A stretch of DNA of 64,000 nt, taken from the NCBI GenBank assembly GCA_937900565.1, contig CALCFG010000136.1, positions 513 to 64,512 on the forward strand, written 5' to 3'. Positions within the stretch are counted from its first letter, which is position 1. Every line of letters begins with the position of its first letter. The position numbers were made by a program, and so were the translations under genes. Source of the stretch: an uncultured Erysipelotrichaceae bacterium (GTDB lineage Bacteria > Bacillota_I > Bacilli_A > Erysipelotrichales > Erysipelotrichaceae). The notes beneath the pieces are model-generated. The model searched no databases and was not told the DNA's origin. It was given only the letters and a program-made list of their open reading frames with translations. Below, in pieces: positions 3,209-18,253 of the stretch.

Positions 3209-3212
3209 TAAC

Positions 3213-4574
3213 GTGAAGGATTTATTTTTAGTACTATTAACAATACTTTGTACTGTAATCGTTGCTAGATTTGTATTGAAAAAATATAATTCGATTTTCG
3301 TTTTCTTTGCATCTGGCGTTGTAATTTTATTAATGGCAGGTTTGTTAACAGGTAATTCAGTACTTGGCGACCAAACAACTGGAAATTTAATTGTTGATAT
3401 CTTTACTTTTATAGTTAACACTTTTAAAAAGAATATATCAGGTGTAGGTACGATCATCATGACCGTTACGGGATATTCTGCCTATATGAAGCACATTAAA
3501 GCATCTGAAAAGCTTGCTTTCATTGCCACTAAACCTTTGAGGAAAATTAAAAATCCTTACATTGTGTTAAGCGGAGTATTCTTCATCGGATTATTATTGA
3601 AATTAGTTATTACGTCACAAGCAGCAGTAGCATTGTTGTTATTAGCAACAACGTACCCAATTTTAATGGCTTTAGGTATTAATAAATTAACAGCAGCAAG
3701 TACTATTTGCTTAGTTTGTTTGGACTGGGGTCCCAATGATGGAAGTACAATTTTCGCAGCAGAAACAGCAGGAATGAGTGTTGTCGATTTTTTCATCAAT
3801 CACCAATCAATAATTGGTTTCACAATGATTATCATACTATCCTTAATTATACCTATTTACTACAAATATATGGACAAAAAGGATACTAATAGAGGTGTTG
3901 CATTAGAGAAAGGCGATGATAATATCGTTGACCCAGATTGTCCGTGGTATTACGCACTATTACCAATCATTCCTTTAATTATAGTGTTTATATCATCTTT
4001 TAGTAATATAGCTATCGATGTAGTTGCAGCAAACTTTATGGGGCTTCTTATTGTATTTGTCATCGAATATATCAGAAGAAAAGACAGAAAAGACGTTCAC
4101 AAAGATGTTCTTGTTGTTCTCAAAGCGATGGGAGATATTTTCGTAAGTGTTGTAGCTATCATTATCAGTGCTTCAATTTTTGCTGAAGGTATAAAACAAT
4201 TAGGTGGAATTTCAATTCTTGCAAATTATATTTCAGGATTTGGTAGCGCAGGTATTTTAATCGTAATTTTCATGTCCCTAATAACATTTGTTGCAGCCAC
4301 TATTATGGGAAGTGGAGCAGCAAGTTGGTTTGCTTTCGGACCTTTAGCACCTGATATCGCTGCTAAAATTGGAATTAATCAATTAGGTCTTATTATCCCT
4401 ATGGAATTAGGAGCTGCCTTGGGAAGAGGTATGTCGCCAGTTGCAGGAGCAACTATTGCGATTTCTGGTTATGCAGGTATGGATGTTATGCAAGTAGTTA
4501 AACGCACAGCACCATTATTGATTTTAGGTTTTGTGATTAATACGGTTATGAGTATTGTGTTATTTGTATTGTAA
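3213..4574 (+). CDS. DcuC-family (C4-dicarboxylate anaerobic carrier-like) membrane transporter; context suggests a nucleoside/ribose-related substrate
   Basis: Multi-pass membrane protein that aligns by eye with E. coli DcuC. Examples: VARFVLKKY vs VARYIIKGY, and GYSAYMKHIKASEKLAFIATKPLRKIKNPY vs GFAAYMTHIGANDMVVKLASKPLQYINSPY. GTG start is 7 nt after AGAGG. Confidence 0.6.
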   Translation: MKDLFLVLLTILCTVIVARFVLKKYNSIFVFFASGVVILLMAGLLTGNSVLGDQTTGNLIVDIFTFIVNTFKKNISGVGTIIMTVTGYSAYMKHIKASEKLAFIATKPLRKIKNPYIVLSGVFFIGLLLKLVITSQAAVALLLLATTYPILMALGINKLTAASTICLVCLDWGPNDGSTIFAAETAGMSVVDFFINHQSIIGFTMIIILSLIIPIYYKYMDKKDTNRGVALEKGDDNIVDPDCPWYYALLPIIPLIIVFISSFSNIAIDVVAANFMGLLIVFVIEYIRRKDRKDVHKDVLVVLKAMGDIFVSVVAIIISASIFAEGIKQLGGISILANYISGFGSAGILIVIFMSLITFVAATIMGSGAASWFAFGPLAPDIAAKIGINQLGLIIPMELGAALGRGMSPVAGATIAISGYAGMDVMQVVKRTAPLLILGFVINTVMSIVLFVL

Positions 4575-4596
4575 TTTATTGACATGGAGAAAGAAA

Positions 4597-5634
4597 ATGA
4601 ACAAAGAAAAAATTATTTTAGATTGCGATCCAGGTAGTGATGATGCGATTGCTATTATGTTAGCATTATTTAGTGATGAAATTGATTTATTAGGAATAAC
4701 TGTAGTTAATGGAAATAGAATTTTACCAAAAACATTAGAAAATACATTAAGAGTTAAACAATTTTTAAATTCTAATGTACCAGTTTATAAGGGATGCGAA
4801 AATGCTTTAGTAAGTAAATTAATTCCGACAAGAAAACCTAATTTACCAAGAGTGACTTTAAATGATTGTCACGGAGATTATATGCCTTTGCCCGAAGCTA
4901 CGATTACAGCTGAACCAAAACATGCAGTTAATTATTTAGTAGAAACTTTCATGAAATCTGAAGGGGATATTACTTTAGTTACTGTTGGTCCATTAACAAA
5001 TGTTGCTATGGCTTTAAGAATGGAACCACGAATTGAAGAGAAAATCAAAAGAATGGTAATCATGGGAGGTGGTCATGCTTCATGTAATGCTAGTGCAACT
5101 TCAGAGTTTAATTTCTACGCAGATCCAGAAAGTGCAAAAATTGTTATGGATACAAAAATCGGAAAAATGATTCTTCCGTTAGATGCAACTTGGAGAGCTT
5201 GTGTAACACTTGATCAATGCGATGAACTTGAAAAGATCGGCACTCCAGCAGCAAAATTTGCAGCAAAGATGATTAGATTGAGAATTGAAGGCTTAAAAAC
5301 AAATGATGTATCAGAACATAATTATAATTTGCGGCACACAGAAGGAACAGTAGCTTCCAAAATTATGTATAGATACGACAATAATATGGCTCCAGTACAC
5401 GATGCTTTAGCAATCGCTTATGTTATTGATCCTACGGTTGTAACCGAATACTTTGATGCTTGGGTAGACATTGATATTGCTGGTGGCTTAAGTGATGGTA
5501 GAATGGTTGCTGATGTTCACAATACAAGAAAGAATAAAGAAGGTATTCATGATAAAGTAGCAATTAATGCTGATAGTAATAAGTTTTATGATACGCTTAA
5601 ACGTGCCTTATCAAGAACAACACCAAATAAATAA
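4597..5634 (+). CDS. nucleoside hydrolase (inosine/uridine-preferring IUNH family)
   Basis: N-terminal ILDCDPGSDDAIAIMLAL aspartate cluster, GPLTNVA, and VHDALAIAY near the C-terminus. ATG 4597 follows GGAGAAAG. Confidence 0.85.
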   Translation: MNKEKIILDCDPGSDDAIAIMLALFSDEIDLLGITVVNGNRILPKTLENTLRVKQFLNSNVPVYKGCENALVSKLIPTRKPNLPRVTLNDCHGDYMPLPEATITAEPKHAVNYLVETFMKSEGDITLVTVGPLTNVAMALRMEPRIEEKIKRMVIMGGGHASCNASATSEFNFYADPESAKIVMDTKIGKMILPLDATWRACVTLDQCDELEKIGTPAAKFAAKMIRLRIEGLKTNDVSEHNYNLRHTEGTVASKIMYRYDNNMAPVHDALAIAYVIDPTVVTEYFDAWVDIDIAGGLSDGRMVADVHNTRKNKEGIHDKVAINADSNKFYDTLKRALSRTTPNK

Positions 5635-5640
5635 CCAAAA

Positions 5641-5666
5641 AGGATAGCTTAGGCTATCTTTTTTGT
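5641..5666 (+). terminator. rho-independent terminator after the nucleoside hydrolase gene
   Basis: AGGATAGC-TTAG-GCTATCTT hairpin followed by a T-run. Confidence 0.7.
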
Positions 5667-5705
5667 TAGTAAATTAATTATGTTAAAATGAAGTAGGGTG
5701 ATTTA

Positions 5706-6725
5706 ATGTCTATTACTATAAAAGATATTGCAAAAAAAGCTGGAGTAAGCATAACAACAGTGTCTTTAGTTTTGAATTGCAAGCCATGTAGAGCTTCTGA
5801 AACTACAAAAGCAAGAATCAAAGAAATCGCTGATAAATATAATTTTGTTGCCAATCAATCTGCAAGAAGCTTAGTTACTAAAAAGACGCATATTATAGGT
5901 ATGATTATACCTGATATAGAAAATATATTTTTCGCCTCATTATGTAAAAGTGTAGAACAGTTTTTACGTAAACATAATTATTCGTTGATAATTGTAAATT
6001 CTAATGATATGCTACAAAACGATTTATCTTTGATAAATGTAATGATTGCACGAGGAGTTGATGGCTTATTATTTATACCTAGTAACGAAGCGGTATTAAA
6101 TAGTAAAAAAATTATTAAAAAACTCGAAACAATCAGCATTCCATTTGTTTTGGTAGATAGAAAGATCGAAGAATTGAATTGCGATAGTGTTTGTTACGAC
6201 AATAGATTAGGCGCAATTATGGCTGTGGATTTATTGATAAAACAAGGACATAAAAAAATTGGCTGTATTAGTGGCCCAAATGATTTAAAACACAGTTTAT
6301 CAAGGTTAGATGGTTATATAGACGCATTCAAAAAGCATAAATTAGCTATTGATAAAACGCTGATTAAACACGGCGATTATAAAATTAAAAGTGGCTATGA
6401 TAAAGCAGAAGAATTAATCAAACAAAACGTTACTGCAATTTTTGTTGGCAATGATATGATGACTTTAGGAGCGTTAAGATATTTGCACAATAACAATTTA
6501 AAAGTCCCAGATGACTGTTCGATTATAAGTTATGACGATACCTTGTCAAATTATGTATTAGATATCGGTATTTCATCTGTTAGACAAGATACTGAAAAAT
6601 TAGCTATCATAGCTTGTCAACAACTATTAAATAAAATTGGTGGAAATTCAGATATCGAACAAATTCTTCTAAAGCCTGAATTAATCGAAAGAGATAGTGT
6701 TAAAAGTAAATATATAACGCTTTAA
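5706..6725 (+). CDS. LacI-family transcriptional regulator
   Basis: N-terminal HTH ITIKDIAKKAGVSITTVSLVLN plus a periplasmic-binding-like sugar domain. SD AGGGTGA. Confidence 0.85.
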   Translation: MSITIKDIAKKAGVSITTVSLVLNCKPCRASETTKARIKEIADKYNFVANQSARSLVTKKTHIIGMIIPDIENIFFASLCKSVEQFLRKHNYSLIIVNSNDMLQNDLSLINVMIARGVDGLLFIPSNEAVLNSKKIIKKLETISIPFVLVDRKIEELNCDSVCYDNRLGAIMAVDLLIKQGHKKIGCISGPNDLKHSLSRLDGYIDAFKKHKLAIDKTLIKHGDYKIKSGYDKAEELIKQNVTAIFVGNDMMTLGALRYLHNNNLKVPDDCSIISYDDTLSNYVLDIGISSVRQDTEKLAIIACQQLLNKIGGNSDIEQILLKPELIERDSVKSKYITL

Positions 6726-6744
6726 TGTATCTGAATAATATGAA

Positions 6745-6779
6745 AGGAGGCGAGGTGATTGAAATCTCGTCTCCTTTTG
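6745..6779. terminator. hairpin terminator between convergent genes
   Basis: AGGAGGCGAG...CTCGTCTCCT stem with one mismatch, followed by TTTT. Confidence 0.6.
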
Positions 6780-6816
6780 TGTAAGTTGTTATGACAGTTT
6801 TTGCCACAGCCCTTAA

Positions 6817-8649
6817 TCAATCACTAAATAGTACCGAATAAAATTGGTTTATAGTTTTACACTGTATTAGTTTTGAAAAACAATCCATATCACTAACTGT
6901 TTCTACGATTAAGTCATATAGTAAACGTAAGTTTTTGACATTGTTTCTATTTATGGCTGACAAGAATACAATCTTAACTTCGTTTTCTCCCCAAGATATG
7001 CCTTTTGGATTTATATAAATGCACATGCTTGTTTCATTAGCGATAAATTCCATTGCATGAGGAATGGCGTACATGTCGCAAATATCTGTTGAAGCAATTG
7101 CCTCTCTTACTAAAACAGATGGTAAGAAGTTAGAATCTACAAGATTTTTTGATTCCAGGTTGTTACATAACTTACGTATAACTATGTCTCGGTCAGTATG
7201 TTTATTATCATAATAAAAATTATCGGGATGAATATAAACATTAAATAAAGCTTTCAGCAATGATTTTCTTTTTTGTTTAATAATTCCATTTGCTGCATTT
7301 AAAATTTTAATTTCATCCGACTTGGTGAAAAGGGGTGTGATAATACAATTTTTAACATTAGTCTTTTCTGCAAAACTAGTAGAAACAATCAAATCATATC
7401 CCTTGGTATTAAGCAATTCTTTTTTTTGAATAACTTCAATTTCAGAATTATAATGAATAAGCTTTTTAAGCTTATTCATTAATGATTGCTGATTTACATA
7501 GTTTCCCGTGTTGATGCCAATTTTTATTTTTTCGTGAGAATCTTTTTCAACGCTATTTTCTATTAAAAAACCTATATGCATAGAAATTAGTGATATTTCT
7601 TGAGGGTTGATAGTGATGTTATATAGATTTTGTATCTCTGTTGCAATGCTTACTGCAATGTCGTAAATAAAGAAACATGATTCCTTGATAGATAACCCAC
7701 CGTCACTACGCACAGGGTTATTGTTTTTGCAGCGAATAATCATGTCGTAGATATGTCTAACGAACACTGGAAAAAAGCTTTCCATATTTATGTCTAAAGA
7801 ATATTTTTTAAAAATTTCATTTGTAATATTCTTTATTGATTGCTCGATGTTGCTAATATCATTATCTCCACCATTAATAACGCTTCTTAATGAATTGTAT
7901 ATAGAGTTCGTTTTATCAATCTTAGAGTTATTAAGATTCCTATTAATTTGGTTAGCTAAGCCAAATAGTTCTTTATCGCATGAACTATTTCTGTTTTCAT
8001 CTTCAAAGTCAAAATTCAAAATCACGAATAAATTTAATAATAAATTGTTAAGGTAGAAGGAAGTGATTTTGTAATTGTGCTTATCTAGTAAATCAATAAC
8101 ATATTCAGATATTTCTGTTAGATTGATATTATTGAAAAATTTTTGGAATGTTACAACATCATTGAATGTGCTACCTGCTTCATCAATAATTCTGTCTATA
8201 TATAATTGCCTTTTCTTAAAACCTTCACCAATTAAAGAAATATCGTTATTAGCTCTCAATATTGATAAATCATATTTACTAAATAAACTTTTTAGATTGT
8301 TGATATGCGTAATAAGAGTGGATTCAGAAACACTCAGCTTATCTGCAAGACTAAAAATGTTTGAAGTACCATATTGCAAAAGATAAAATATCAATTCATT
8401 ATCATCATCAAATTCCGTTCTAGTTAAAGGAATCATTGAGATAAGATCTTCAAATTCTTTATTTATTGAAAAGCCCATTTTTGTAGAAATGATTAGTTGC
8501 TTATTAAAAAGATTATTTATAGATTTAATATCATTTCTAATGGTTTTGTCGGAAACATTAAAAATAGCTGCAATTGTAGATGCAGGTGAGTTAGGTTTGG
8601 AATATAGATAAAAAACTATCTGTCTTTCTCTATCGGTCAATTCATACAT
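6817..8649 (-). CDS. PRD/PTS-regulatory-domain transcriptional regulator (LicR/MtlR-like: HTH + PRD region + EIIB-like + EIIA(Mtl/Fru)-like domain)
   Basis: N-terminal DRERQIVFYLY...STIAAIFNVSDKTIRNDI HTH. C-terminal EIIA-2-like segment DMYAIPHAMEF...VKIVFLSAINRN. Divergent from the PTS operon. Confidence 0.65.
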   Translation of the reverse strand: MYELTDRERQIVFYLYSKPNSPASTIAAIFNVSDKTIRNDIKSINNLFNKQLIISTKMGFSINKEFEDLISMIPLTRTEFDDDNELIFYLLQYGTSNIFSLADKLSVSESTLITHINNLKSLFSKYDLSILRANNDISLIGEGFKKRQLYIDRIIDEAGSTFNDVVTFQKFFNNINLTEISEYVIDLLDKHNYKITSFYLNNLLLNLFVILNFDFEDENRNSSCDKELFGLANQINRNLNNSKIDKTNSIYNSLRSVINGGDNDISNIEQSIKNITNEIFKKYSLDINMESFFPVFVRHIYDMIIRCKNNNPVRSDGGLSIKESCFFIYDIAVSIATEIQNLYNITINPQEISLISMHIGFLIENSVEKDSHEKIKIGINTGNYVNQQSLMNKLKKLIHYNSEIEVIQKKELLNTKGYDLIVSTSFAEKTNVKNCIITPLFTKSDEIKILNAANGIIKQKRKSLLKALFNVYIHPDNFYYDNKHTDRDIVIRKLCNNLESKNLVDSNFLPSVLVREAIASTDICDMYAIPHAMEFIANETSMCIYINPKGISWGENEVKIVFLSAINRNNVKNLRLLYDLIVETVSDMDCFSKLIQCKTINQFYSVLFSD

Positions 8650-8693
8650 AGTACTATATTATTCCAATACTTAAAAAAGTATAAATTTAATTT

Positions 8694-8710
8694 TTCCAGC
8701 CATGGTGGAA
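8694..8710. promoter_or_regulatory. 17-bp near-palindrome TTCCAGCCATGGTGGAA upstream of the -35; candidate regulator binding site
   Basis: Arms TTCCA/TGGAA around CCATGG. It sits just upstream of the predicted PTS promoter. Confidence 0.35.
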
Positions 8711-8719
8711 ATCATATAT

Positions 8720-8748
8720 TTGTAAACGCTTACTATCATTTCTAATAT
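8720..8748 (+). promoter_or_regulatory. putative PTS operon promoter (TTGTAA-N17-TAATAT) overlapped by cre-like TGTAAACGCTTACT (8721-8734)
   Basis: Hexamers with 17-nt spacing. The cre-like element has one mismatch to TGWAANCGNTNWCA. Confidence 0.5.
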
Positions 8749-8767
8749 ATATGCAGGAGGTGTTGCT

Positions 8768-9070
8768 GTGACTAAAGAAGAAGTTATGCAATCTGCTTTT
8801 GAAATCATCTCTTACGCTGGAGATGCAATGAATGAGTATTATGGTGCAGTTATCGATTATAAACATCACGATATCGAAAGTGCAAAGAAAAAACTTGAAG
8901 AGGGTAATGTTTTTCTTAATAAAACTCATTTAATTCAAACTAAGCTTATTCAAAGTGAAGTTAATGATGAACCTATTCCTTATTCGCTCATCATGACACA
9001 TGCCCAAGACCATTTAACGGGCGCTATCAATTGGCAAAGGATGGTCAATTTATTATTAAATGAAGACTAA
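8768..9070 (+). CDS. PTS lactose/cellobiose-family EIIA
   Basis: About 100 aa helical protein with the family-typical AGDAMNEY...LIMTHAQDHL histidine region. GTG start is 6 nt after AGGAGGTG. Confidence 0.8.
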   Translation: MTKEEVMQSAFEIISYAGDAMNEYYGAVIDYKHHDIESAKKKLEEGNVFLNKTHLIQTKLIQSEVNDEPIPYSLIMTHAQDHLTGAINWQRMVNLLLNED

Positions 9071-9109
9071 CATTCAGAAAGGGGGATAGTGTTTTAACAC
9101 TAACAAATT

Positions 9110-10435
9110 ATGGCAAACGTATTAAATAATATTGCTAGTTTTCTTGAAAAATTTTTAAGCCCTGTAGCTGGTAAAATTGCAGGGAATAAACATTTACAAA
9201 TTTTAGCTGCTGCTTTCATGAGTATCTTACCATTGATTATGGTTGGTTCATTTGCAATGATTATAGCTTTTCCATTCATGGACTATACTACAATGCAAAC
9301 AACAGATATGTTCTATGGTTTCTTCAAAGCGTGGGCAGCATTCTCTGAAGGCTTTGGACAACATCTTGGCTATTTATTCAATATCACATTAGGTAGCCAA
9401 GGATTATGGTTATCAATCGCAATCGCTTATGTAACTGCAAAAAGAAGAAACTTACACATGTTAAATTCAATTATCGTTGTTTTTGTTTCTTTCCTTGTAG
9501 TTAATGGATCATTAATTGATTGGAACTGGTCAAGTGCTTACTTTGGTGGAACTGGTATCTTCAGTGCAATTCTTGTATCATTCTTAGCTATTGACTTATA
9601 CACATTCATGTCAGAAAAGAAAATTGGATACATTAAATTCCCTGATAGTGTTCCTGAAGTATTATCAAGTTCTATTTCTACATTATTCCCAATTGCAGTG
9701 ATTTTCGTATTAATGTGTGTCATCAGAGGCGTATTTGGTGATATCATCGGTATTCCTTTCCCTGAATTGATCATGTCAATTGGTTCTAAGTTAAATATGG
9801 CAGTTGATAGTATCTTTGGTATCTCAATTGCATCTACACTTTCTCAAATTGCTTGGTGGTTTGGTATTCACTCAAGTGCAATATTATCAGTTGTTACTCC
9901 TTCTTTAGAAGCTAACATGTTAAGTAACATCAATGCTTATGCAGCAGGTGTTCCATTATCTGATTTACCAACTATCGTAAACTCTACATTCTATTATACT
10001 TATGTTGCAATCGGAGGGGGCGGAGCTACATTTGGTCTAGTTTTATTAATGCTTAAGAGTAAATCTGAACAAATCAGAGTAATTGGTAAATTATCAATTA
10101 TCCCTGCATTCTTTGGTATCAATGAACCAGTATTGTTCGGTTTACCAATCGTATTAAACCCAATGTTCTTAATCCCATTCTTATTATCCCATGTTGTAAA
10201 TATTATCATCTGTTACTACGCTATGAGCTTTAACTTAGTCAATAAAGTCGTGATGTCTTTATCAGCCCAAACGCCGATTGGATTAAGTCATGTGTTGGGT
10301 AACTTAGACTTCAGATCAATAATTTTATTAGTCGTAGTAATTTTAGTCGATGTAGTATTGTATTATCCGTTCTTTAAATTATTTGAAAAAGATAAAGTTG
10401 CTGAAGAAGAAGCTTTGGCAGCACAATCTAAATAG
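9110..10435 (+). CDS. PTS lactose/cellobiose-family EIIC permease
   Basis: 441 aa polytopic protein. N-terminus FLEKFLSPVAGKIAGNKHLQILAAAFMSILPLIMVGSF is typical of CelB/LicC-type EIIC. Confidence 0.85.
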   Translation: MANVLNNIASFLEKFLSPVAGKIAGNKHLQILAAAFMSILPLIMVGSFAMIIAFPFMDYTTMQTTDMFYGFFKAWAAFSEGFGQHLGYLFNITLGSQGLWLSIAIAYVTAKRRNLHMLNSIIVVFVSFLVVNGSLIDWNWSSAYFGGTGIFSAILVSFLAIDLYTFMSEKKIGYIKFPDSVPEVLSSSISTLFPIAVIFVLMCVIRGVFGDIIGIPFPELIMSIGSKLNMAVDSIFGISIASTLSQIAWWFGIHSSAILSVVTPSLEANMLSNINAYAAGVPLSDLPTIVNSTFYYTYVAIGGGGATFGLVLLMLKSKSEQIRVIGKLSIIPAFFGINEPVLFGLPIVLNPMFLIPFLLSHVVNIIICYYAMSFNLVNKVVMSLSAQTPIGLSHVLGNLDFRSIILLVVVILVDVVLYYPFFKLFEKDKVAEEEALAAQSK

Positions 10436-10443
10436 GAGATTAT

Positions 10444-10755
10444 ATGAGTAAAATTAATGTTTTGTTAGCCTGTCAAAACGGAATGAGTACAGGTATTATT
10501 AAAAAGAAAATCGAAGAAACAGCTGTTGCAGAAGGACAAGAAATTACCATCTGTGCTGTTGGATTAGATGAAATCAAAAAAGAAGCAAGTAAATTTGACA
10601 TTTTACTTCTTGCACCACAAATCAAATATGCTGCTAAATCAGTCGAAAAAGATGTTGAAGGCATATGCAAGTTTATGATTATCGATTCAATTGACTTTGG
10701 TACTATGAACGGATCAAACGTATATCATAAAATGATGAAGAAATTAGCTGAATAG
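10444..10755 (+). CDS. PTS lactose/cellobiose-family EIIB
   Basis: KINVLLACQNGMSTG with the phospho-cysteine. 103 aa. SD GGAG. Confidence 0.85.
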   Translation: MSKINVLLACQNGMSTGIIKKKIEETAVAEGQEITICAVGLDEIKKEASKFDILLLAPQIKYAAKSVEKDVEGICKFMIIDSIDFGTMNGSNVYHKMMKKLAE

Positions 10756-10756
10756 T

Positions 10757-11689
10757 ATGTTGAAACAAGTATTAGATATTTATGAACTTATAGATCGAGG
10801 TACTGTTTGCGGACAGGATATAGTAGATTTATTCAAAACCTTTGAATTTGTTGATGCGTCTTGGGTTAAAGTTGAAGGTTCCGAAGGAAGTACTGATTTC
10901 GTTGAAATTTTAGTTAAAGGTACACATGGAAAAAGCGTAGGTGGTACTAAACCAACTCTATCAGTAATTGGAAGACTTGGCGGTATAGGCGCAAGACCAA
11001 AATATAAAGGAATGGTTTCTGATGCAGATGGATGTATTTGTGCTTTGTCAGTAGCGTATAAACTAGCGCAGATGAGTAAACACAAAGATCGTTTAGACGG
11101 CGATGTTGTCATTACAACACACATTTGCCCAAATGCTCCGACCGAACCGCATGAACCAGTTGATTTTATGGGCTCACCAGTTGATATGGAACAAATGAAT
11201 CAGTATGAAGTTATCAAAGATGCCGATGCTGTAATTACAATCGATACAACTAAAGGAAACAATATTATCACTAACAAAGGATTTGCAATTTCACCAACTG
11301 TAAAAGAAGGATATATTTTAAAAGTAAATCAGCAACTAGTTAATATTATGGAACAAACTTCTGGCACTAAAGCTAAAACCTTCCCGCTTTGCCAGTTAGA
11401 TATCACACCATATTCAAACAACATGTATCACATCAACAGTATCTTGCAACCAGCAACCGCAACAAATGCTCCTGTTGTAGGCGTTGCAATAACTACTGAA
11501 ACTGCCGTTGCAGGTTGTGCGACTAGTGCTAGTCATGAAATCGATATTGCGGAAGCAGCTAGATTTACTTTAGAAGTAGCTAAACAATTTACAGAAGAAC
11601 GTTTAGAGTTCTACGATTCAAAAGAATTCAAACAACTTACAGATTTATACGGAAAGATGAACATTTTCCAGACAAATCCACAATTATAA
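10757..11689 (+). CDS. conserved hypothetical protein, tentatively DUF1177-like (a family that usually partners MlrC/M81 peptidases)
   Basis: ATG lies 1 nt after the EIIB stop (translational coupling). Size is about 310 aa with a possible metal site ITTHICPNAPTEPHEPVDF. Family assignment is from memory of size and context, not verified. Confidence 0.35.
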   Translation: MLKQVLDIYELIDRGTVCGQDIVDLFKTFEFVDASWVKVEGSEGSTDFVEILVKGTHGKSVGGTKPTLSVIGRLGGIGARPKYKGMVSDADGCICALSVAYKLAQMSKHKDRLDGDVVITTHICPNAPTEPHEPVDFMGSPVDMEQMNQYEVIKDADAVITIDTTKGNNIITNKGFAISPTVKEGYILKVNQQLVNIMEQTSGTKAKTFPLCQLDITPYSNNMYHINSILQPATATNAPVVGVAITTETAVAGCATSASHEIDIAEAARFTLEVAKQFTEERLEFYDSKEFKQLTDLYGKMNIFQTNPQL

Positions 11690-11694
11690 TTAAT

Positions 11695-11727
11695 GGGAGA
11701 GGTTAGTCCTCTCCCAGGAGTTTTTTT
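11695..11727 (+). terminator. strong GC-rich hairpin terminator/attenuator with the next gene's SD inside it
   Basis: GGGAGAGG-TTAGT-CCTCTCCC, then AGGAG, then T7, then ATG at 11730. Confidence 0.7.
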
Positions 11728-11729
11728 AT

Positions 11730-12422
11730 ATGAAATTTATCTTAATCTTATTAATATTTGCACTTATATTTGCATTGCCAATTATTTTACTTATCAAAAA
11801 TAAAGAGAAGCTAAACATAAAATTTGTTTTCGTTGGCTTATTGATGTACTTAGTATTTAGGATATTGCTTTATCCTTTTATCGGATTGTTTGCAAACAAT
11901 TTGACAGTACTAGCAAAATCTATCATCGATGTAATTTATCTATTGGTATATATATTGATTGTTAAACGATTGATTTTTACAAAAGTATTCCATCTATCAA
12001 GCGAAGATAAAGACAAGCTCTTTTCATCTGGATTAACTGAATCAACAATTGAAGTGTTATTAGTTTTTTTACCAAACTTATTAAATCTAGGTGCTTATTT
12101 TTTCTTGCTAGAATTTGGAAATATCTACGATGCACTTGAAACAAGTTTTACAGCCAACCAGATTCAAGAATACGTTACATATTTAAATTCAATTGGTTAT
12201 GATTACTTTATGTTCTTAGGACTAATGATAATTGCTTTATATCTGTTTAACATTACAAACAACTACTTGTTAGTAAATAACGCAAAATTAAGCTTCGTGT
12301 ATTCTTTAGTATTGTATGTTACATATTTTGTTTTAGCACTACTAAATAAATGGATTGCCTGCATTATATTAATCGGATTAATTACTTCAATTTACTACAT
12401 TAACAGTAAAGAAAGGATTTAA
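11730..12422 (+). CDS. hypothetical polytopic membrane protein
   Basis: Six to seven hydrophobic helices and no recognisable motif. Its stop overlaps the next start (TAAATG). Confidence 0.5.
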   Translation: MKFILILLIFALIFALPIILLIKNKEKLNIKFVFVGLLMYLVFRILLYPFIGLFANNLTVLAKSIIDVIYLLVYILIVKRLIFTKVFHLSSEDKDKLFSSGLTESTIEVLLVFLPNLLNLGAYFFLLEFGNIYDALETSFTANQIQEYVTYLNSIGYDYFMFLGLMIIALYLFNITNNYLLVNNAKLSFVYSLVLYVTYFVLALLNKWIACIILIGLITSIYYINSKERI

Positions 12423-13883
12423 ATGAAAGTTTTTGTTGCGCACTTTACAGCAGAATGTAATGAACATATCAGCCATGTGGTTGATAAAAATGATTTCCTG
12501 TTTTTATATGGCGATGAATGCATTGCTGCAATGAATATAAAAGAGGTTTTTGAAAAGGAAAATATAGAAATCATTCCTTCAATTTATGCAAATGTGAATC
12601 CCAATGGCATGATTTCTTTGGATACATTTAAATTTATTAAAGAAACAATCATTTCGAAGTTAAAAGAATGTGTAGACTCAATTGATGGAGTATACTTACA
12701 GTTTCATGGTGCTAGTGGCGTTAAAGGCTTAGATTGTGTATCTGGTGAACATGATATTCTCGATGCGATCAGAAAAGTCACAGGAAAATATATGCCGATT
12801 GCAATGGTTATGGATCCGCATGGGAATCTAACAAACGAATTAGCTGATAAGTTGAATATTGTTAGATGTTACAGAGAATCTCCGCATTCAGATGCTGTTG
12901 ATACGGAAATCAAAGTTGCTAAGTTGCTTGTAGATTTGATTAAAAAAAAAAGAGTAATGCATCCAATTGTTAAAAAGATTCCTATCATGGTCGGAGGAGA
13001 AAGAAGTGTTTCAGCTAATGAACCAGTTGCTTCAGTCAATAAAATGTTAGACGAATACGAAAAAGATGATCGTGTTTTCTCAACAAGTTTACATATTGGC
13101 TATATCAGACATGACGATGATAAGCTTGGTGCTGCGATTACTGTTATTCCATCAGAAGATAAATATAGTGAATATTGTAATGAAATAGCCATTAAGCTAT
13201 CAAATTATGTCTGGGAACATCGTCACGAATTTAAATTTAACGGTAACTTTGATGAAGTTGATGCCTCGGTTCTAAAAGCTATTGCATATGATGGCAAGAC
13301 TGTTGTAATTACCGATTCAGGCGACAATTGTGGTGCTGGTGGATATGGGCAAAATACGGTTGTATTAAGAGAATTTTTAAAACAAAAAACAGACAAGAAA
13401 ATTTTATTTGCCGGCATTAATGATAAAAAGGCTTATAAATTATTATCAACTGCAAATATTGGAGACTCATTAAACGTTAACATTGGAATTGAAGAAGATG
13501 AATTAAGCAAAGCTGTTAATGTTGACTGCCATTTAATTGCAATTGGAGAGCAAAAAAGAGGATATGCACTTCATGACGATTGTGGGCTTTCATATCTAAT
13601 CAATATCGATAATACCAACATTGATATTCTCGTTCTAAACGATAATATTCAATACGGTACAATGGAACAGTTTGATTACGCCAAAGCTCCATTCCATGAT
13701 TATGATATTGTTATAGTTAAAATGGGATATTTAGATACATACCTAATTCCAGAAACAAAATATCATATTATGGCACTAACTGATGGTCCAACAATTCAAC
13801 GTAGCGAAAAAATACCATTTAAAAAAATCGCACGGCCAATGTATCCAATTGACGATTTTGATGAACTTTATTTTATAAATTAA
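12423..13883 (+). CDS. MlrC-like M81-family metallopeptidase homologue
   Basis: N-terminus MKVFVAHFTAECNEH resembles the M(R/K)I..GGF.HETNTF start of MlrC-type proteins. Length (486 aa) and the HGA..G...SGEH / DPHGN segments fit. Not verified by search. Confidence 0.5.
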   Translation: MKVFVAHFTAECNEHISHVVDKNDFLFLYGDECIAAMNIKEVFEKENIEIIPSIYANVNPNGMISLDTFKFIKETIISKLKECVDSIDGVYLQFHGASGVKGLDCVSGEHDILDAIRKVTGKYMPIAMVMDPHGNLTNELADKLNIVRCYRESPHSDAVDTEIKVAKLLVDLIKKKRVMHPIVKKIPIMVGGERSVSANEPVASVNKMLDEYEKDDRVFSTSLHIGYIRHDDDKLGAAITVIPSEDKYSEYCNEIAIKLSNYVWEHRHEFKFNGNFDEVDASVLKAIAYDGKTVVITDSGDNCGAGGYGQNTVVLREFLKQKTDKKILFAGINDKKAYKLLSTANIGDSLNVNIGIEEDELSKAVNVDCHLIAIGEQKRGYALHDDCGLSYLINIDNTNIDILVLNDNIQYGTMEQFDYAKAPFHDYDIVIVKMGYLDTYLIPETKYHIMALTDGPTIQRSEKIPFKKIARPMYPIDDFDELYFIN

Positions 13884-13898
13884 GAGGAGAGATCATTA

Positions 13899-13923
13899 TG
13901 ATACAACCCTAGTCAAGTAGACA
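13899..13923. repeat. IS left inverted repeat TGATACAACCCTAGTCAAGTAGACA
   Basis: 18/25 ungapped identities with the reverse complement of 15772-15796. Shared TGATA terminus and GTAGACA block. Confidence 0.65.
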
Positions 13924-14098
13924 TGGGAAATATGTAAAAGTCTCATCGATCAACAGCCCATTCCAATTTGGTTTGGGTTGTATTTTATTTCTTCTATAAT
14001 AATTTCTTTTTGATGTTTCTTCTTTGATTCAATTTTATTCCAGTATCTGACATATCTTTTTGCTGGAATAATTGGATATCGTGTAAATTCATTTTGTT

Positions 14099-15715
14099 CT
14101 AGTGATTCATTTGTACTTGTCCACAAGGTTTACCGTTTAATCTTTTTTGTGGATAATGATTGATGTAGTAATCTAGCGTTCCTTTGATAGCTTGTCTCAT
14201 TTCTTCTTTGGAAGTGATGCTTGGATATAGGATAAACAACATATCTTTAAATTGTCCCTGAAAACCTTCACACACTCCATTATCAATGCACTTTGATACA
14301 CGTGACATAGATTGTGACATACCATATTCATCCAATTTTAATTTATATACTTGTCTTGTATACGCAAAACCTCTGTCTGAATGTACTAATGGTGTTGCTT
14401 CAGGATATGCATTATGAGCATTCTTTAGTGTTTGATCAGCTAGTAATGCATCGTTTTTATCAGATACTTCTAAAGCGACTGGAAACCTGTCATAAAGATC
14501 AATCATTGGCGAAATAAATAGTTTCTCTCCAGTTGTAGGTATCTTTACCTCCGTAACATCCGTACACCATTTTTGATTTGGACCTGTAGTATTGAAATCT
14601 CTGTTGAGAATGTTTTCTGCCGTATGTTCTGCATTAGATCGAATGTAGTTGTATCTGGATCTACGTCTATAAGTGGATTTGATATCATTGATGCACATCA
14701 ATCGATAGACTCTGTTATGACCACATCTATATCCTTCGTTTCTTAGAGTGTAGTACATGGTCATTGTGCCAAAAAGAGAATTGTTGGAATTAGATATCTC
14801 CTTGATTCTAGATGTAATTCTTTCATCTTCATGTTGTTTATCCAATTGTTTAGGAGAAGGTGATGAGTGTAGCCACTTGTAATATGCACTTCTGCAGATG
14901 CCCATGATTGAACACATTTCATTTATTGGCCAGTTGCGATTTTCATGTAATGATTGTATTAGCGAATAATCTTTTATCTTTTGTTTTCTTATAAGATAAA
15001 GTCTTTTAGCCTTCGGAAGACTCGCCAAATAGGTCTTTTCGAAGGCTTCGTCTTTTTTTAACAGTTCAAGCTCCATCTCTTGTCGTCTGTTGATTCTTTC
15101 AAGCTCGGCTATTCTGCGCTGAGCTTTTTCCAAGTCGGTTAGTTGTTCTTCAGATTTATGTTTACCACGTCTGTCTTCGAGAGCATCTTCTCCATTGGAT
15201 TCATATTTTTTGACCCAGTTATAAATTTGAGCGTAATTTCCACCATAAAATTCAGCTGTACCTTTATAATCGTGATTATGATCTATACAGTATTTAATGA
15301 TTTCGATTTTCTTTTCTTTGCTTACTTTTAAAGTATCAGCCATATAGACCTCCGGTTTAGGATCGTAACCCTTAAGTTCTCTATGACTATTATACTTTTT
15401 TACCCAATTTAAAACAGTAGTACATTTAGGTATTCCATACTTAGCTGCCAAATCTATGGATGATCCATAACCTTGAAGATATTCTTGAACAACCATCTCC
15501 TTAAACTCTTTAGAATACTTATTGTTTGTACTCTTATTGTCAAAAATTGAATGGCTGTTTACGCGATAGCTTTTGACCCATTCTAGAACTAATCCGGATC
15601 CGCATTTTCCCATGTTCAATTCAAGCTTTATTTGTTCTGCAGATTTTCTTCCGCTTAAATAATCTTCACAAGCCTGTACCTTTTGTTCTTTCGTATATTT
15701 AGCTTTTCTTCCCAT
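14099..15715 (-). CDS. IS3-family transposase, OrfA-OrfB in a single fused reading frame
   Basis: HTH repeats (AKYTKEQKVQACEDYL, EFKEMVVQEYL, KIEIIKYCIDH), a leucine-zipper-like EQLTDLEKAQRRIAELERINRRQEMELELLKK, then an rve-type core (NQKWCTDVTE...HSDRGFAYT...CIDNGVCEGF). ATG 15715 lies 7 nt after AAAGGTGGGA. Confidence 0.85.
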   Translation of the reverse strand: MGRKAKYTKEQKVQACEDYLSGRKSAEQIKLELNMGKCGSGLVLEWVKSYRVNSHSIFDNKSTNNKYSKEFKEMVVQEYLQGYGSSIDLAAKYGIPKCTTVLNWVKKYNSHRELKGYDPKPEVYMADTLKVSKEKKIEIIKYCIDHNHDYKGTAEFYGGNYAQIYNWVKKYESNGEDALEDRRGKHKSEEQLTDLEKAQRRIAELERINRRQEMELELLKKDEAFEKTYLASLPKAKRLYLIRKQKIKDYSLIQSLHENRNWPINEMCSIMGICRSAYYKWLHSSPSPKQLDKQHEDERITSRIKEISNSNNSLFGTMTMYYTLRNEGYRCGHNRVYRLMCINDIKSTYRRRSRYNYIRSNAEHTAENILNRDFNTTGPNQKWCTDVTEVKIPTTGEKLFISPMIDLYDRFPVALEVSDKNDALLADQTLKNAHNAYPEATPLVHSDRGFAYTRQVYKLKLDEYGMSQSMSRVSKCIDNGVCEGFQGQFKDMLFILYPSITSKEEMRQAIKGTLDYYINHYPQKRLNGKPCGQVQMNH

Positions 15716-15771
15716 ATAAAAATCCCACCTTTGTAGTTTCACATCGATGGGATAATTTTAATTATTTCGTG

Positions 15772-15796
15772 TGTCTACCTCGGTGGGATTATATCA
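15772..15796. repeat. IS right inverted repeat
   Basis: Reverse complement reads TGATATAATCCCACCGAGGTAGACA. Confidence 0.65.
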
Positions 15797-15901
15797 TCAA
15801 GCTCTGCTTTTACTATTTCATGAAATATTTAGGACAACAAACATAAATATACTAAAGGTTCATAAAACTCTTGCTAGAAGCTGACTTTTAGTCAAAATAT
15901 T

Positions 15902-15917
15902 AGTGAATTTAATCACT
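15902..15917. promoter_or_regulatory. CRP/FNR-type palindrome AGTGA-N6-TCACT upstream of flavoprotein reductase 1
   Basis: Perfect 5-bp arms with a 6-bp spacer (AGTGAATTTAATCACT). Followed by TTGTTA (15925-15930) and TATAGT about 16 nt later. Confidence 0.35.
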
Positions 15918-16007
15918 TTCTACTTGTTAATTTTTTATAAAGGTGTATAGTAGGTCTATCAAGACATTGATACGTATTGTACCGAATGCCAAGAATAGGA
16001 GAATAGA

Positions 16008-17975
16008 ATGAAAAAGCTTTTTGCAAGTACATTGGCCGGATTCATGGTATTGAGTTTGGCTGCGTGTTCTGGTAGTAATGACGCTAAAGAAACAGCAACA
16101 ACTATTGGAAAATTAACACCTGGCACTTACACTGCAAGTCGTGCTGGATTAAATGGTGATGTTGAAGTGGAAGTTACAGTATCTGAAACAGCCATTGAAG
16201 ATGTTAAAGTAGTGAATGAAATGGAAACGCCAGGTATTGGATCTGTATTAGTAGATGGGTCTAAAGAAGGTATTGTACCGGTAGTTTCAATTCCTAAAGC
16301 TATTGTGGAAAATCAAAGCATTGCAGTGGATTCAGTAACTGGTGCAACCATTACTTCTGGCGCTATTAAAGGTGCTGTTGAAGATTGTTTAGTTGAAGCT
16401 GGTGCTAATGTGGATGAATGGAAGAAAGAAGTTGCATTTACACCTGCTGAAGTTGCTACAGATGCAGATGTTATTGTTGTTGGTGGCGGTGGTGCCGGTT
16501 TAGTTGCTGCAATTAGTGCTAGTCAAAATGGTGCTAAAGTTATCGTTTTAGAAAAGAATGGTGCAGTTGGTGGTGACACACTTGTTTGTGGCGCTATCTA
16601 TAACAACCCAGATAAAGAATTGCAATCACAAGTTGAAATGAGTGATGCGGTTAAACATCAATTAGAACAAGCTTTAGAAGTAGAACCTGTGGATGACAAA
16701 CATGCTGCTTTACAAGATGCAGTTCGTAAAGAATGGGAAGAATATAAAGCAAGTGGTGAAACTTATTTATTCGATAGTGATAATTGGTTTGAATTACAAA
16801 CTTACCAAGGTGGAGATAGTGTAGCTAACTTAGATTTAGTTGAAGTGTTAACACATCAAGCTGCGCCTGGTTATGAATGGATTAAATCATTGGGTATGGA
16901 ATTCAATGATAAGATTAGTCAAGGTGCGGGTTCATTATGGCAAAGAACACATACTTCTACGAAACAAATGGGCACAGGATTTATTTCAACTTATGTAGAA
17001 AATATCGATAAAGATCCAAATGTGACTATTTTACCTGAGATGACTGGTGAAAAATTAGTAACAGATGATAGTGGTAAAGTTATTGGCGTTGTTGCAAAAG
17101 ATAAAGGTGGTAACGAAGTTACGTTTAATGCAACTAAAGGTGTTGTTTTAGCAACTGGTGGTTTTGCTGCGAACAACAAAATGGTTCAAGAACATAATAC
17201 AAGTGGTAAATGGGACGATTTAAGTAAAACGATGACTACTAACCGTTTCTCTTGTAGCCAAGGTGATGGTATTCGTATGGCACAAGAAGTTGGTGCGAGT
17301 TTAACGGATATGGATCAAATCCAATTATTATACTTAGGTAATACGAAGAATGGTCAATTAACAAAATATCCAGCACGTTGCGCTAATGGTACTGACCAAG
17401 AAATCTTCATTAACAAAAATGGTGAACGTTTTGTTCGAGAAGATGGTCGTCGTGACGAAATTTGCTTAAAAGTATTACAACAACCCGATGGAATGTTCTA
17501 TTTCTTAGAATCTGCTGATGGTGATGGTTATGTGGATATTGCCACTGCTAAAACAGCGGATGGATTTGATTTTGCAAAGATGGAAGAAGAAGGATATATC
17601 ATTGTTGCTGATACATTAGATGAAATGGCAGAAAAATTAGGTTGTGATGCTGAAACGTTGAAAGCAACAGTTGATGCATTCAATGCAAGCGTTGAAAGTG
17701 GTGAAGATGAATTTGGACGTACTTTATATTCTACTAAGTTAGAAAATGGTCCATGGGTTGCTACACCACGTACAGCTTGCTTACACCACACAATGGGTGG
17801 TGTGACTATCGATACATTAGGTAATGTATTGGATGAAGCGGGTAACCCAATTAAAGGTTTAGTTGCTGCTGGTGAAATTACTGGTGGTATTCATGGTGCT
17901 AACCGTTTAGGTGGTAACGCTGTGGTTGATACAGTAGTATTTGGTAAATTAGCTGGCGAAACTATTGCAAAATAG
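16008..17975 (+). CDS. extracytoplasmic lipoprotein: FMN-binding domain fused to an FAD-dependent fumarate/urocanate-reductase-family flavoprotein
   Basis: Lipobox LSLAACSG. FMN_bind flavinylation motif DSVTGAT (16329-16349). Dinucleotide fold DVIVVGGGGAGLVAAISA...VLEKNGAVGGDT. C-terminal GLVAAGEITGGIHGANRLGGNA. Confidence 0.8.
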   Translation: MKKLFASTLAGFMVLSLAACSGSNDAKETATTIGKLTPGTYTASRAGLNGDVEVEVTVSETAIEDVKVVNEMETPGIGSVLVDGSKEGIVPVVSIPKAIVENQSIAVDSVTGATITSGAIKGAVEDCLVEAGANVDEWKKEVAFTPAEVATDADVIVVGGGGAGLVAAISASQNGAKVIVLEKNGAVGGDTLVCGAIYNNPDKELQSQVEMSDAVKHQLEQALEVEPVDDKHAALQDAVRKEWEEYKASGETYLFDSDNWFELQTYQGGDSVANLDLVEVLTHQAAPGYEWIKSLGMEFNDKISQGAGSLWQRTHTSTKQMGTGFISTYVENIDKDPNVTILPEMTGEKLVTDDSGKVIGVVAKDKGGNEVTFNATKGVVLATGGFAANNKMVQEHNTSGKWDDLSKTMTTNRFSCSQGDGIRMAQEVGASLTDMDQIQLLYLGNTKNGQLTKYPARCANGTDQEIFINKNGERFVREDGRRDEICLKVLQQPDGMFYFLESADGDGYVDIATAKTADGFDFAKMEEEGYIIVADTLDEMAEKLGCDAETLKATVDAFNASVESGEDEFGRTLYSTKLENGPWVATPRTACLHHTMGGVTIDTLGNVLDEAGNPIKGLVAAGEITGGIHGANRLGGNAVVDTVVFGKLAGETIAK

Positions 17976-17990
17976 TTAAAATCTCTAAGC

Positions 17991-18022
17991 AAAAAGGTGA
18001 TCTCAAAAAATCACCTTTTTGT
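17991..18022 (+). terminator. rho-independent terminator
   Basis: AAAAAGGTGAT-loop-ATCACCTTTTT. Confidence 0.75.
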
Positions 18023-18207
18023 GTGGGTTTAACTAGGCAAACATAATCATATATAGGGAAATGGGTAATATCACATCCCGATTTTACATCGTCACGTTAA
18101 AGCATTTATACGCTTTTCAGTTATTTCAATTAGTTTAGAGTGTGAAAAACATGTCATTAATGTAAAAAATCGTTTATCTCATCATTAAAAAGTGATAGAT
18201 TAGTATG

Positions 18208-18244
18208 CGTCGGTCGCAATTCCCCGACGTTAAACAAAACAAGG
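18208..18244 (+). promoter_or_regulatory. preQ1-I riboswitch (translational, sequesters the SD)
   Basis: CGUCGGUCGCAAUUCCCCGACGUUAAACAAAACAAGG closely matches the T. tengcongensis aptamer CUGGGUCGCAGUAACCCCAGUUAACAAAACAAGG. It has the P1 hairpin plus an A-rich tail ending in the SD AAGGAG, directly before queT. Confidence 0.85.
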
Positions 18245-18253
18245 AGAGATAAA

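Follow-up and report, generated by a model that had tools for sequence, protein, structure and literature searches.

A Lac/cellobiose-family phosphotransferase operon with M81 and DUF1177 genes in an uncultured Erysipelotrichaceae bacterium

A gene cluster encoding a sugar phosphotransferase system (PTS) together with two peptidase-like proteins is located in a 64-kb stretch of contig CALCFG010000136.1 from an uncultured Erysipelotrichaceae bacterium. The whole stretch is referred to here as the window, and loci from other sequences are labelled L001 and so on. The cluster contains seven open reading frames (ORFs), comprising a PRD-containing activator that is transcribed divergently from an operon for EIIA, EIIC, EIIB, a DUF1177 protein, a polytopic membrane protein, and an M81 (MlrC-like) protein (Table 1). 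The ORF list places all seven where an earlier note on this DNA had put them, and profile searches confirm its calls of the PRD/EIIA-type regulator and of EIIA, EIIC, and EIIB. The genes are tightly packed. The DUF1177 ATG follows the EIIB stop codon TAG after 1 nt, just as the earlier note had observed, and the TAA of the membrane protein gene abuts the M81 ATG at positions 12420 to 12425 instead of overlapping it as the note had described, whereas the orthologues of these two genes in L007, L008, and L088 overlap by 4 nt. The arrangement is genuine and not a chance one, and the locus is regarded as a PTS catabolic operon. The wider association between PTS permease and M81 genes was not found described in the literature, and a literature search found no publication linking M81, DUF1485, or DUF1177 to the PTS.

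Table 1. Features of the PTS-M81 locus, in order of position in the window
Feature	Position	Strand	Remarks
Terminator-like hairpin	6738..6782	+	Strong, 19 pairs; between upstream LacI-family gene and 3' end of regulator gene; upstream boundary of locus
PRD activator, MtlR/LicR/Mga type	6817-8649	-	610 aa; Pfam HTH_11 + Mga + PRD + PTS_EIIA_2; divergent from operon
Palindrome TTTCCAGCCATGGTGGAAA	8693..8711		Overlaps -35 region; candidate operator for PRD activator
Promoter-like site TTTCCA-16 nt-TATATT	8693..8720	+	Consensus match only, 9/12
cre-like site TTGTAAACGCTTACT	8720-8734	+	Fits WTGNAANCGNWNNCW at 15/15 positions
EIIA, Lac/cellobiose family	8768-9070	+	Pfam PTS_IIA Lac family, E 4e-24; GTG start, AGGAGG 7 nt upstream
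EIIC, Lac/cellobiose family	9110-10435	+	PTS_EIIC; TIGR00410 (lacE subfamily) 253.2 bits vs cutoff 236
EIIB, Lac/cellobiose family	10444-10755	+	Pfam PTS_IIB Lac family
DUF1177 protein	10757-11689	+	310 aa; Pfam E 1.6e-127
Stem-loop (11694-11716), then GGAG and T-run (T7AT), then ATG	11694..11727	+	9 bp, 6 GC
Polytopic membrane protein	11730-12422	+	230 aa; no family match for window copy
M81 (MlrC-like) protein	12423-13883	+	486 aa; DUF1485 E 1.7e-65; MlrC_C E 4.6e-29

The operon encodes a complete Lac/cellobiose-family PTS in which the phosphorelay residues and the EIIC sugar-site residues are intact. EIIA (PF02255), EIIB (PF02302), and EIIC (PF02378) are separate proteins that each score above the Pfam cutoff, which places the system in the Lac/cellobiose PTS family TC 4.A.3. 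EIIA carries a THAQDH motif with the phospho-His, and EIIB carries an N-terminal LLACQNGMSTG motif with the phospho-Cys. EIIC aligns over its full length with the Bacillus cereus ChbC structure 3QNQ (E 1.5e-48) and retains the equivalents of ChbC His250 (GIH) and Glu334 (GINE), two residues that reportedly point to the hydroxyl group of the sugar at which phosphorylation takes place. The identity between EIIC and Escherichia coli ChbC is 26%, and EIIC falls below every substrate-specific NCBIfam equivalog cutoff for cellobiose, chitobiose, and lactose (253 bits versus 434 for TIGR00359, 123 versus 760 for NF007634, and 182 versus 614 for TIGR00394). In the textbook sugar-catabolic PTS operon, the permease gene is accompanied by one for a phospho-glycosidase or some comparable sugar enzyme. 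In agreement with the earlier note, which had reported no glycosidase in the locus, tblastn with glycoside hydrolase (GH) queries of families GH1, GH4 (ChbF), and GH170 (MupG) gave no match in the 64-kb window, other GH families not being screened exhaustively. A glycosylasparaginase gene was likewise not found by tblastn of the window.

The last gene of the operon encodes a member of the M81 family, as the earlier note had proposed, with scores of 221.6 bits for DUF1485 (cutoff, 22.8) and 102.3 bits for MlrC_C (cutoff, 27.2). The protein matches PDB entries 3IUU (E 2.5e-17) and 7YLQ, microcystinase C (E 2.6e-14). Its residues H95, D131, H133, and H155 align at a constant offset with H150, D184, H186, and H208 of the MlrC zinc site, the residues of which (E56, H150, D184, H186, and H208) were taken from PMC12474180. 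E11, in the motif AECNEH, falls outside the HMMER alignment and corresponds to MlrC E56 by motif position. All five zinc-site residues are invariant in 27 members of the M81 subfamily, which is defined here as proteins at least 40% identical to the window M81 (33 dereplicated clusters), and the enzyme looks active as judged from its sequence. The sole M81 enzyme characterised, MlrC, is a peptidase whose substrates are linear microcystin peptides (PMC12474180). The window M81 scores 68.5 bits against the MlrC model NF041767, for which the cutoff is 999, which indicates that it is not a microcystinase.

The assignment of the 310-aa protein to DUF1177 in the earlier note also holds. Residues 38 to 306 match profile positions 2 to 270 of the 272 positions of PF06675, with a score of 424.5 bits. 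No relative in PDB is detectable by sequence, and no functional literature on DUF1177 was found. The best Foldseek matches of an AlphaFold2 model (pLDDT, 84.5; pTM, 0.89) are M17 leucyl aminopeptidases (E 1.9e-10; probability, 1.00; query-normalised TM, 0.57), with 241 hits at E values of ≤0.001. The earlier note's description of both proteins as peptidase-like is therefore borne out, for M81 by the intact zinc ligands and for DUF1177 by the M17-aminopeptidase-like model.

The linkage of Lac-type EIIC, DUF1177, and MlrC-like genes, for which the earlier note had suggested a survey, is kept in other genomes. The arrangement of regulator, IIA, IIC, IIB, DUF1177, with or without the membrane protein, and M81 recurs in L001 and L002 from the same species, in L003 and L004 beside rnpA and dnaA, in L007 (Anaerorhabdus), in L008 and L087 (Breznakia), in L088 and L102, and in L089, a Mycoplasmatales metagenome-assembled genome. 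In total, the cassette is present in at least five other Erysipelotrichales or Mollicutes-related genomes and occupies six chromosomal contexts, counting the window, with different flanking genes in each. EIIC is its most conserved protein, sharing 73 to 83% identity with the window protein in the other copies, followed by M81 (61 to 68%), DUF1177 (60 to 67%), the regulator (33 to 50%), and the membrane protein (23 to 30%). Regulator orthologues hold the same position in L001, L003, L007, L087, L088, and L089.

Outside this clade, DUF1177 keeps different company. An alignment-based scan of reference genomes gathered 80 DUF1177 loci, of which just two, both from Erysipelotrichales, carry PTS and M81 genes. 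The other 78 loci (L009 to L086) lie outside the clade, in Bacillota, Proteobacteria, Actinomycetota, and Chloroflexota, and in none of them is M81 encoded within 10 kb of DUF1177, which indicates that DUF1177 is a clade-specific addition to the cassette. The premise of the earlier note that DUF1177 is a usual partner of MlrC/M81 proteins is thus not upheld, and habitual partnership of the two families was rejected. Outside the clade, DUF1177 nearly always has an AroM-like neighbour, and genes for DUF917 (S-Me-THD), an Opp-type ABC importer, and an IclR regulator often adjoin it as well; this neighbourhood is a different conserved module.

The gene that generally partners the PTS is that for M81, and not that for DUF1177. 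PTS genes lie within 3 kb of M81 in 22 of the 33 dereplicated clusters, several of the exceptions having short flanks, and these PTS genes belong to two unrelated EIIC families, Lac and Bgl/Glc (BglG/EIIBC-bgl). Four architectures were distinguished. Type (a) is that of the window. Type (b), found in about 15 loci such as L090 and L104 to L115, comprises EIIA-Glc, a BglG antiterminator, a Bgl-type EIIBC, and M81, in some cases joined by CutC and DUF7916, and has no glycosidase gene. In type (c), M81 directly follows a Lac-type IIA-IIC-IIB set (L129 and L135 to L143), the EIIC of which is 55 to 56% identical to that of the window. The smallest unit of this kind, at positions 5963 to 9488 of L139, consists of the four genes IIA-IIC-IIB-M81 between an EamA transporter gene and BREX genes (brxA and brxB), with an AbiEii toxin gene upstream, a setting that looks like a genomic island. 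The unit is shared with seven near-identical human-gut contigs (L135 to L143), and no regulator was found near it in L139. Because it is self-contained amid unrelated flanks, M81 is its only enzyme.

Type (d) loci carry additional enzymes. The gene order is EIIC, GH170/MupG, IIB, M81, glycosylasparaginase, IIA, RDD, IIB, EIIC, a GRDB-like gene, M20, and regulator in L119; IIA, IIB, glycosylasparaginase, M20, CutC, and M81 in L132; and M81, RDD, IIB, EIIC, a GRDB-like gene, M42, M42, and M20 in L110. In L088, a second PTS operon (13343-20948) stands directly behind the window-type cassette and comprises EIIA-Glc, a BglG antiterminator, a Bgl-type EIIBC, two M81 genes, M24, and GH1; its M81 paralogues are 60% identical to each other and about 40% identical to the cassette M81. 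The Asparaginase_2 partner is of the glycosylasparaginase type, scoring 205 bits against PDB 1P4K (E 1e-59) versus 124 bits against isoaspartyl peptidases. Genes for this enzyme and for a PepV-like M20 peptidase adjoin M81 and Lac-PTS genes in L119, L129, and L131 to L134, and other M81-PTS loci also carry M42 and M24 peptidase, RDD, GH170/MupG, GH1, and CutC genes. CutC-family genes stand directly beside M81 in six dereplicated clusters (L091, L104, L107, L108, L121, and L134), DUF7916 accompanies M81 in the Bgl-type operons L090 and L105 to L115, and both seem to be part of the same pathway theme. A separate observation concerns a 173-aa protein whose gene recurs behind a Lac-type EIIC gene (L091, 1253-1774; L110, 9565-10089; L118, 224-736; L119, 13152-13673; and L129, 13924-14445) and whose match to Pfam GRDB (glycine reductase selenoprotein B) is confined to the N-terminal half of that model.

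From this gene context, we infer that the PTS takes up an amide-linked sugar-amino-acid or glycopeptide conjugate, the peptide part of which is removed by the M81 and DUF1177 proteins, a reading to which we give about an even chance of being correct. The locus is proposed to be a self-contained catabolic operon under substrate control. The PTS would import and phosphorylate a beta-glycoside-like compound whose non-sugar part is an amino acid or a short peptide held by an amide-type bond. In the cell, two metallohydrolases, the M81 zinc enzyme and the DUF1177 protein with its M17-aminopeptidase-like fold, would take the place of the usual 6-phospho-beta-glycosidase step and strip off the amino acid or peptide, releasing a sugar phosphate to central metabolism. 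At the core, the PTS would be partnered by M81, with DUF1177 added only in Erysipelotrichales and related Mollicutes-type lineages and the small YhfC/APH-1-like membrane protein serving as a dispensable accessory. The internal hairpin, rather than terminating the operon, would adjust how strongly the distal genes are expressed. The occurrence of one M81 subfamily beside two unrelated PTS permease families, and once as the sole enzyme, speaks strongly, at the level of gene context, for an action of M81 on the phosphorylated PTS product. The partners that recur (glycosylasparaginase, PepV-like M20, M42, M24, and GH170) fit sugar-amino acid or peptide substrates and so favour uptake of a conjugate. 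They lend indirect support to the candidate sugar-amino-acid or glycopeptide substrates that the earlier note had suggested. The tight gene coupling, with a 1-nt EIIB-DUF1177 gap and abutting stop and start codons before M81, is also counted in favour of this reading, as are the intact PTS, the conservation of the cassette across six chromosomal contexts, the active-looking M81, the peptidase-like fold of DUF1177, and, for the wider M81-PTS link, the palindrome that L129 shares with the window. The leading candidate class of substrates, put forward as a rather doubtful first choice, would be N-glycan-core glyco-amino acids and glycopeptides of the N-acetylglucosamine (GlcNAc)-Asn type.

Several points weigh against uptake and cleavage of such a conjugate. 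The function is read throughout from gene context, and because the window cassette has no glycopeptide-related partners of its own, the glycopeptide clue comes from loci whose M81 is only 41 to 56% identical. No glycosylasparaginase, M20, CutC, GH1, GH4, or GH170 gene is present in the 64-kb window, and it is possible that a glycosidase is encoded elsewhere in the genome, outside the 64 kb searched. About one-third of the M81 clusters have no adjacent PTS genes, including L097, whose M81 is 68% identical to that of the window. The usual neighbours of DUF1177 (AroM-like, DUF917, and Opp ABC) suggest plain peptide-like substrates. True membership of DUF1177 in M17 was rejected, since comparing the DUF1177 profile with E. 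coli PepA in hhalign gave a probability of 0.2%, and the M17 metal ligands (Lys, Asp, Asp, Asp, and Glu) could not be mapped onto DUF1177. With a fold match and no sequence-profile similarity, DUF1177 would be peptidase-like by its modelled fold only and is not filed under M17.

Some of these points would also suit another explanation, in which the PTS does no more than transport beta-glucosides or chitobiose in the ordinary way, its phospho-glycosidase being encoded elsewhere, and M81 and DUF1177 are merely co-regulated general cytoplasmic peptidases serving joint carbon and nitrogen scavenging and not acting on the PTS product. EIIC is a generic lacE-subfamily member, DUF1177 elsewhere accompanies Opp-type peptide importers, some M81 homologues are solitary (L092, L097, and L116), and E. 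coli YpdE and YpdF have no annotation beyond aminopeptidase despite their location in a PTS operon. However, the minimal IIA-IIC-IIB-M81 operon has no further enzyme, one M81 subfamily has been recruited beside two unrelated PTS families, the genes are tightly coupled in a cassette that moves as a unit, and EIIC misses all of the cellobiose, chitobiose, and lactose equivalog cutoffs, so that we hold this explanation to be fairly unlikely. It is marginally less probable than another, itself unlikely, which assigns the sugar-releasing step to M81 alone. M81 would then be a phospho-glycoconjugate amidase or deacylase that replaces the phospho-beta-glycosidase by cutting an N-glycosyl-amide, N-acyl-aminosugar, or lactyl-amide bond of the phosphorylated PTS product, with DUF1177, M20, M42, and M24 proteins trimming the peptide. 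This agrees with M81 being the only enzyme of the L139 operon, with its taking the usual position of the BglA/BglB-type hydrolase in Bgl-type operons devoid of GH genes (L090 and L104 to L115), and with its intact zinc site. Opposed to it are the peptidase activity of MlrC, the only characterised member of the family, on linear microcystin peptides (PMC12474180) and the redundancy of a second sugar-releasing amidase where glycosylasparaginase is present (L119, L129, and L132).

Recycling of muropeptides, in which a chitobiose-like PTS imports GlcNAc-N-acetylmuramic acid (MurNAc)-peptides and M81 and DUF1177 degrade the stem peptide with its D-amino acids, would be in line with the action of MlrC on peptides containing D-Glu and unusual residues (PMC12474180), with the MupG-family gene adjoining M81 in L119, and with the weak similarity of the Bgl-type EIIBCs to MurP (E 1e-32 to 1e-35). 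It is nevertheless improbable. No MurQ etherase, NagZ, or MurNAc-L-Ala amidase is encoded in any cassette copy, the GH170 family also includes the chitobiose enzyme ChbE, the EIIBCs match beta-glucoside models far better than MurP, and the glycosylasparaginase partners would be left unexplained. Least probable of all, and very much so, is that the PTS proteins mainly serve as a sensor for the PRD activator, the output of the operon being peptidase expression without transport-coupled catabolism. PRD regulators are governed by their cognate EIIB and EIIA, and the regulator is conserved along with the cassette, but EIIC retains the transport and phosphorylation residues and is the best-conserved protein of the set, and some M81-PTS operons, such as that of L139, have no regulator nearby.

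The interpretation given in the earlier note is partly supported and points broadly the right way. The note knew of no characterised pathway of this kind, a statement that overlooks the E. coli operons fryBC-ypdFE-fryA and frvABXR and a glyco-amino-acid pathway of Lactobacillus casei that uses an MFS permease (PMC6960285). Like the window, the E. coli K-12 operons fryB-fryC-ypdF-ypdE-fryA and frvA-frvB-frvX-frvR combine PTS and metallopeptidase genes without a glycosidase. The frv operon also encodes a large multidomain regulator, and the corresponding NCBIfam model PRK09863 matches the window regulator at E 5.8e-8; a close relationship to FrvR itself was rejected, direct similarity being weak (BLASTP 7e-5 over 80 aa). 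FrvX is 34% identical (E 7e-61) to the product of an M42 gene of the M81-PTS locus L110, and an M24 gene, of the family to which YpdF belongs, follows the M81 genes in L088. In contrast to the window, the E. coli operons encode a fructose-type PTS instead of one of the Lac/cellobiose type, and their peptidases are M42 and M24 instead of M81 and DUF1177. Both operons are cryptic and annotated as putative, and they thus provide a precedent without a mechanism.

The alf-2 system of L. casei shows how a glyco-amino acid can be used. Fucosyl-alpha-1,6-GlcNAc-Asn is imported whole and split inside the cell by the glycosylasparaginase AsnA2, and a linked cytoplasmic PepV (M20) has been proposed to trim glycopeptides (PMC6960285). 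The glycosylasparaginase requires that the alpha-amino and alpha-carboxyl groups of Asn be free (PMC6960285), which means that peptidases must trim the peptide first. Uptake in this system is through an MFS permease, with a ROK sugar kinase acting next, and not through a PTS, and the system has neither M81 nor DUF1177; conversely, the window cassette lacks the glycosylasparaginase and M20 peptidase, enzymes of the alf-2 type that adjoin M81 and Lac-PTS genes in the type (d) and related loci named above. The chitobiose operons chbBCARFG of E. coli and chb of L. paracasei (PMC12791066) have the same three-component Lac-family PTS as the window. They always include a phospho-glycosidase, either GH4 ChbF with the deacetylase ChbG or GH170 ChbE, whereas the window has none of these and its EIIC lies below the chitobiose and cellobiose cutoffs. 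ChbE acts with a cellobiose-type PTS on diacetylchitobiose, the core disaccharide of N-glycans (PMC12791066). In the microcystin cluster mlrA-D, the M81 zinc metallopeptidase MlrC has the same metal ligands as the window M81 and is co-encoded with the membrane protein MlrA (CAAX/Rce1, CPBP superfamily), much as a YhfC/APH-1-like membrane protein gene directly precedes M81 in the window. The transporter of that cluster is the MFS peptide permease MlrD and not a PTS, and the window membrane protein, unlike those of the MlrA type, has no conserved His motifs and is dispensable.

In contrast to the textbook pairing of PTS permeases with phospho-glycosidases or comparable enzymes, genes of one M81 subfamily recur beside those for PTS permeases of two unrelated families and in some operons encode the sole enzyme. 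It is conceivable, although we lean towards doubting it, that PTS-linked M81 proteins form a class of phospho-glycoconjugate amidohydrolases replacing phospho-beta-glycosidases, in which case PTS permeases of at least two families would import amide-linked conjugates, for example, N-glycan remnants of the GlcNAc-Asn type. If this is true, the substrate class would be one undescribed for the PTS, and the long-cryptic E. coli operons frv, fry-ypd, and sgc, in which PTS and peptidase genes are combined, would be explained along the same lines. The PTS may also handle sugar-amino-acid and glycopeptide conjugates, such as remnants of N-glycoproteins, which are abundant in guts and fermented foods. 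Such a function would give a first physiological role to M81 outside microcystin degradation, to DUF1177, and to CutC, and it offers a testable hypothesis for the E. coli PTS-peptidase operons that are still annotated as putative. Culturable carriers exist in Erysipelothrix larvae and Paratissierella segnis.

The regulator comprises an N-terminal HTH and Mga, a PRD, and a C-terminal EIIA-2 domain, with just one PRD picked up by Pfam. In the region between the regulator and EIIA genes, the palindrome TTTCCAGCCATGGTGGAAA conforms to the pattern T[TA][TAG]CCA-N6-8-TGG[AC]A[AT], which is present in seven of the eight regulator-EIIA intergenic regions examined, including that of the type (c) locus L129, against a background of 0.014 per kb in all comparison sequence, the pattern having been derived from the same sequences in which it was counted. 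A palindrome of the form TTNCCA-N6-8-TGGNAA is likely to be the operator, judging from this recurrence. Promoter-like sites in the region are no more frequent than in shuffled sequence. For the cre-like site TTGTAAACGCTTACT reported in the earlier note, the fit to the consensus WTGNAANCGNWNNCW stands, whereas conservation beyond the species does not. The site recurs only in the same-species L001 and in none of five other cassette copies, so that it was rejected as a conserved feature, and the consensus has five matches in total in the 64-kb window.

At the junction of the DUF1177 and membrane protein genes, the hairpin noted earlier is present, in a 56-nt segment that folds at -19.2 kcal/mol, but the Shine-Dalgarno sequence GGAG lies just 3' of the stem and is not embedded in it. 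Hairpins of unrelated sequence occur at this junction in three lineages (the window, L007, and L088), and none was found there in L008, L089, and L003. In L089, M81 begins about 15 nt past DUF1177 with no hairpin between them. The occurrence of unrelated hairpins at the same junction, and of none where M81 directly follows DUF1177, agrees better with an element that modulates expression than with the end of an operon, and the window hairpin resembles an imperfect terminator or a hairpin with a stabilising or attenuating role inside the operon. The complete terminator that the earlier note had considered as a challenge to its reading is unlikely; GGAG separates the T-run from the stem, no better promoter-like site lies downstream, and the arrangement in L089 points in the same direction.

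The family of the membrane protein is tiny and fast evolving; 1.84 billion protein clusters contain just 11 representatives of it. Pfam YhfC (PF10086) matches 4 of 14 family members (best E 4.5e-6; 26.8 bits versus a cutoff of 24.2), and the window protein has no match to PF10086 at E values of ≤0.1. The closest Foldseek match of its model (pLDDT, 87.9) is APH-1B, a gamma-secretase subunit (probability, 0.99; TM, 0.58; E 0.23). YhfC/CPBP (Rce1-like) intramembrane proteases have catalytic Glu-Glu and His motifs. The invariant residues of the family are G36, K79, E104, E108, P115, and Y159, so that two Glu residues one helical turn apart are conserved and no His is. An active protease of the CPBP/MlrA type is not supported, given the absence of a conserved His and of a YhfC match for the window copy. 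In L003, the gene is a pseudogene (10934-11647) with stops in all frames under genetic codes 11 and 4, while the remaining cassette genes are intact; code 4 was rejected as an explanation of the missing ORF, as the stops persist and the neighbouring genes use TGG for Trp. The gene is missing altogether from L089, which together with the pseudogene indicates that the membrane protein is a dispensable accessory. An Enterococcus 223-aa protein encoded after DUF1177 was rejected as a homologue, having 13% identity and resembling an ECF S-component.

The locus is delimited at both ends. Upstream, a separate operon at positions 2270 to 6782 encodes a PfkB ribokinase, a DcuC-type carrier, an inosine-uridine nucleoside hydrolase, and a LacI regulator, ends at the hairpin that bounds the locus, and looks like a nucleoside or ribose scavenging operon. 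Directly downstream is an insertion sequence (IS), with an IS3-family transposase encoded by a single fused 547-aa ORF (14099-15742, minus strand) and flanks extending from 13893 to 16007; a simple search found no terminal inverted repeats. The transposase gene is absent from strain L001, which is 98 to 99% identical, and the synteny of the window and L001 ends about 10 nt past the M81 stop codon, the following 2 kb of L001 being nowhere in the window, which suggests insertion together with rearrangement. The genes beyond the IS are housekeeping genes. A flavoprotein gene at 16008-17975 (plus strand) encodes FMN_bind and FAD_binding_2 domains and a lipoprotein-type signal (…LAACSG), and its product is probably a flavin-dependent reductase of the fumarate/urocanate type that works outside the cytoplasm.

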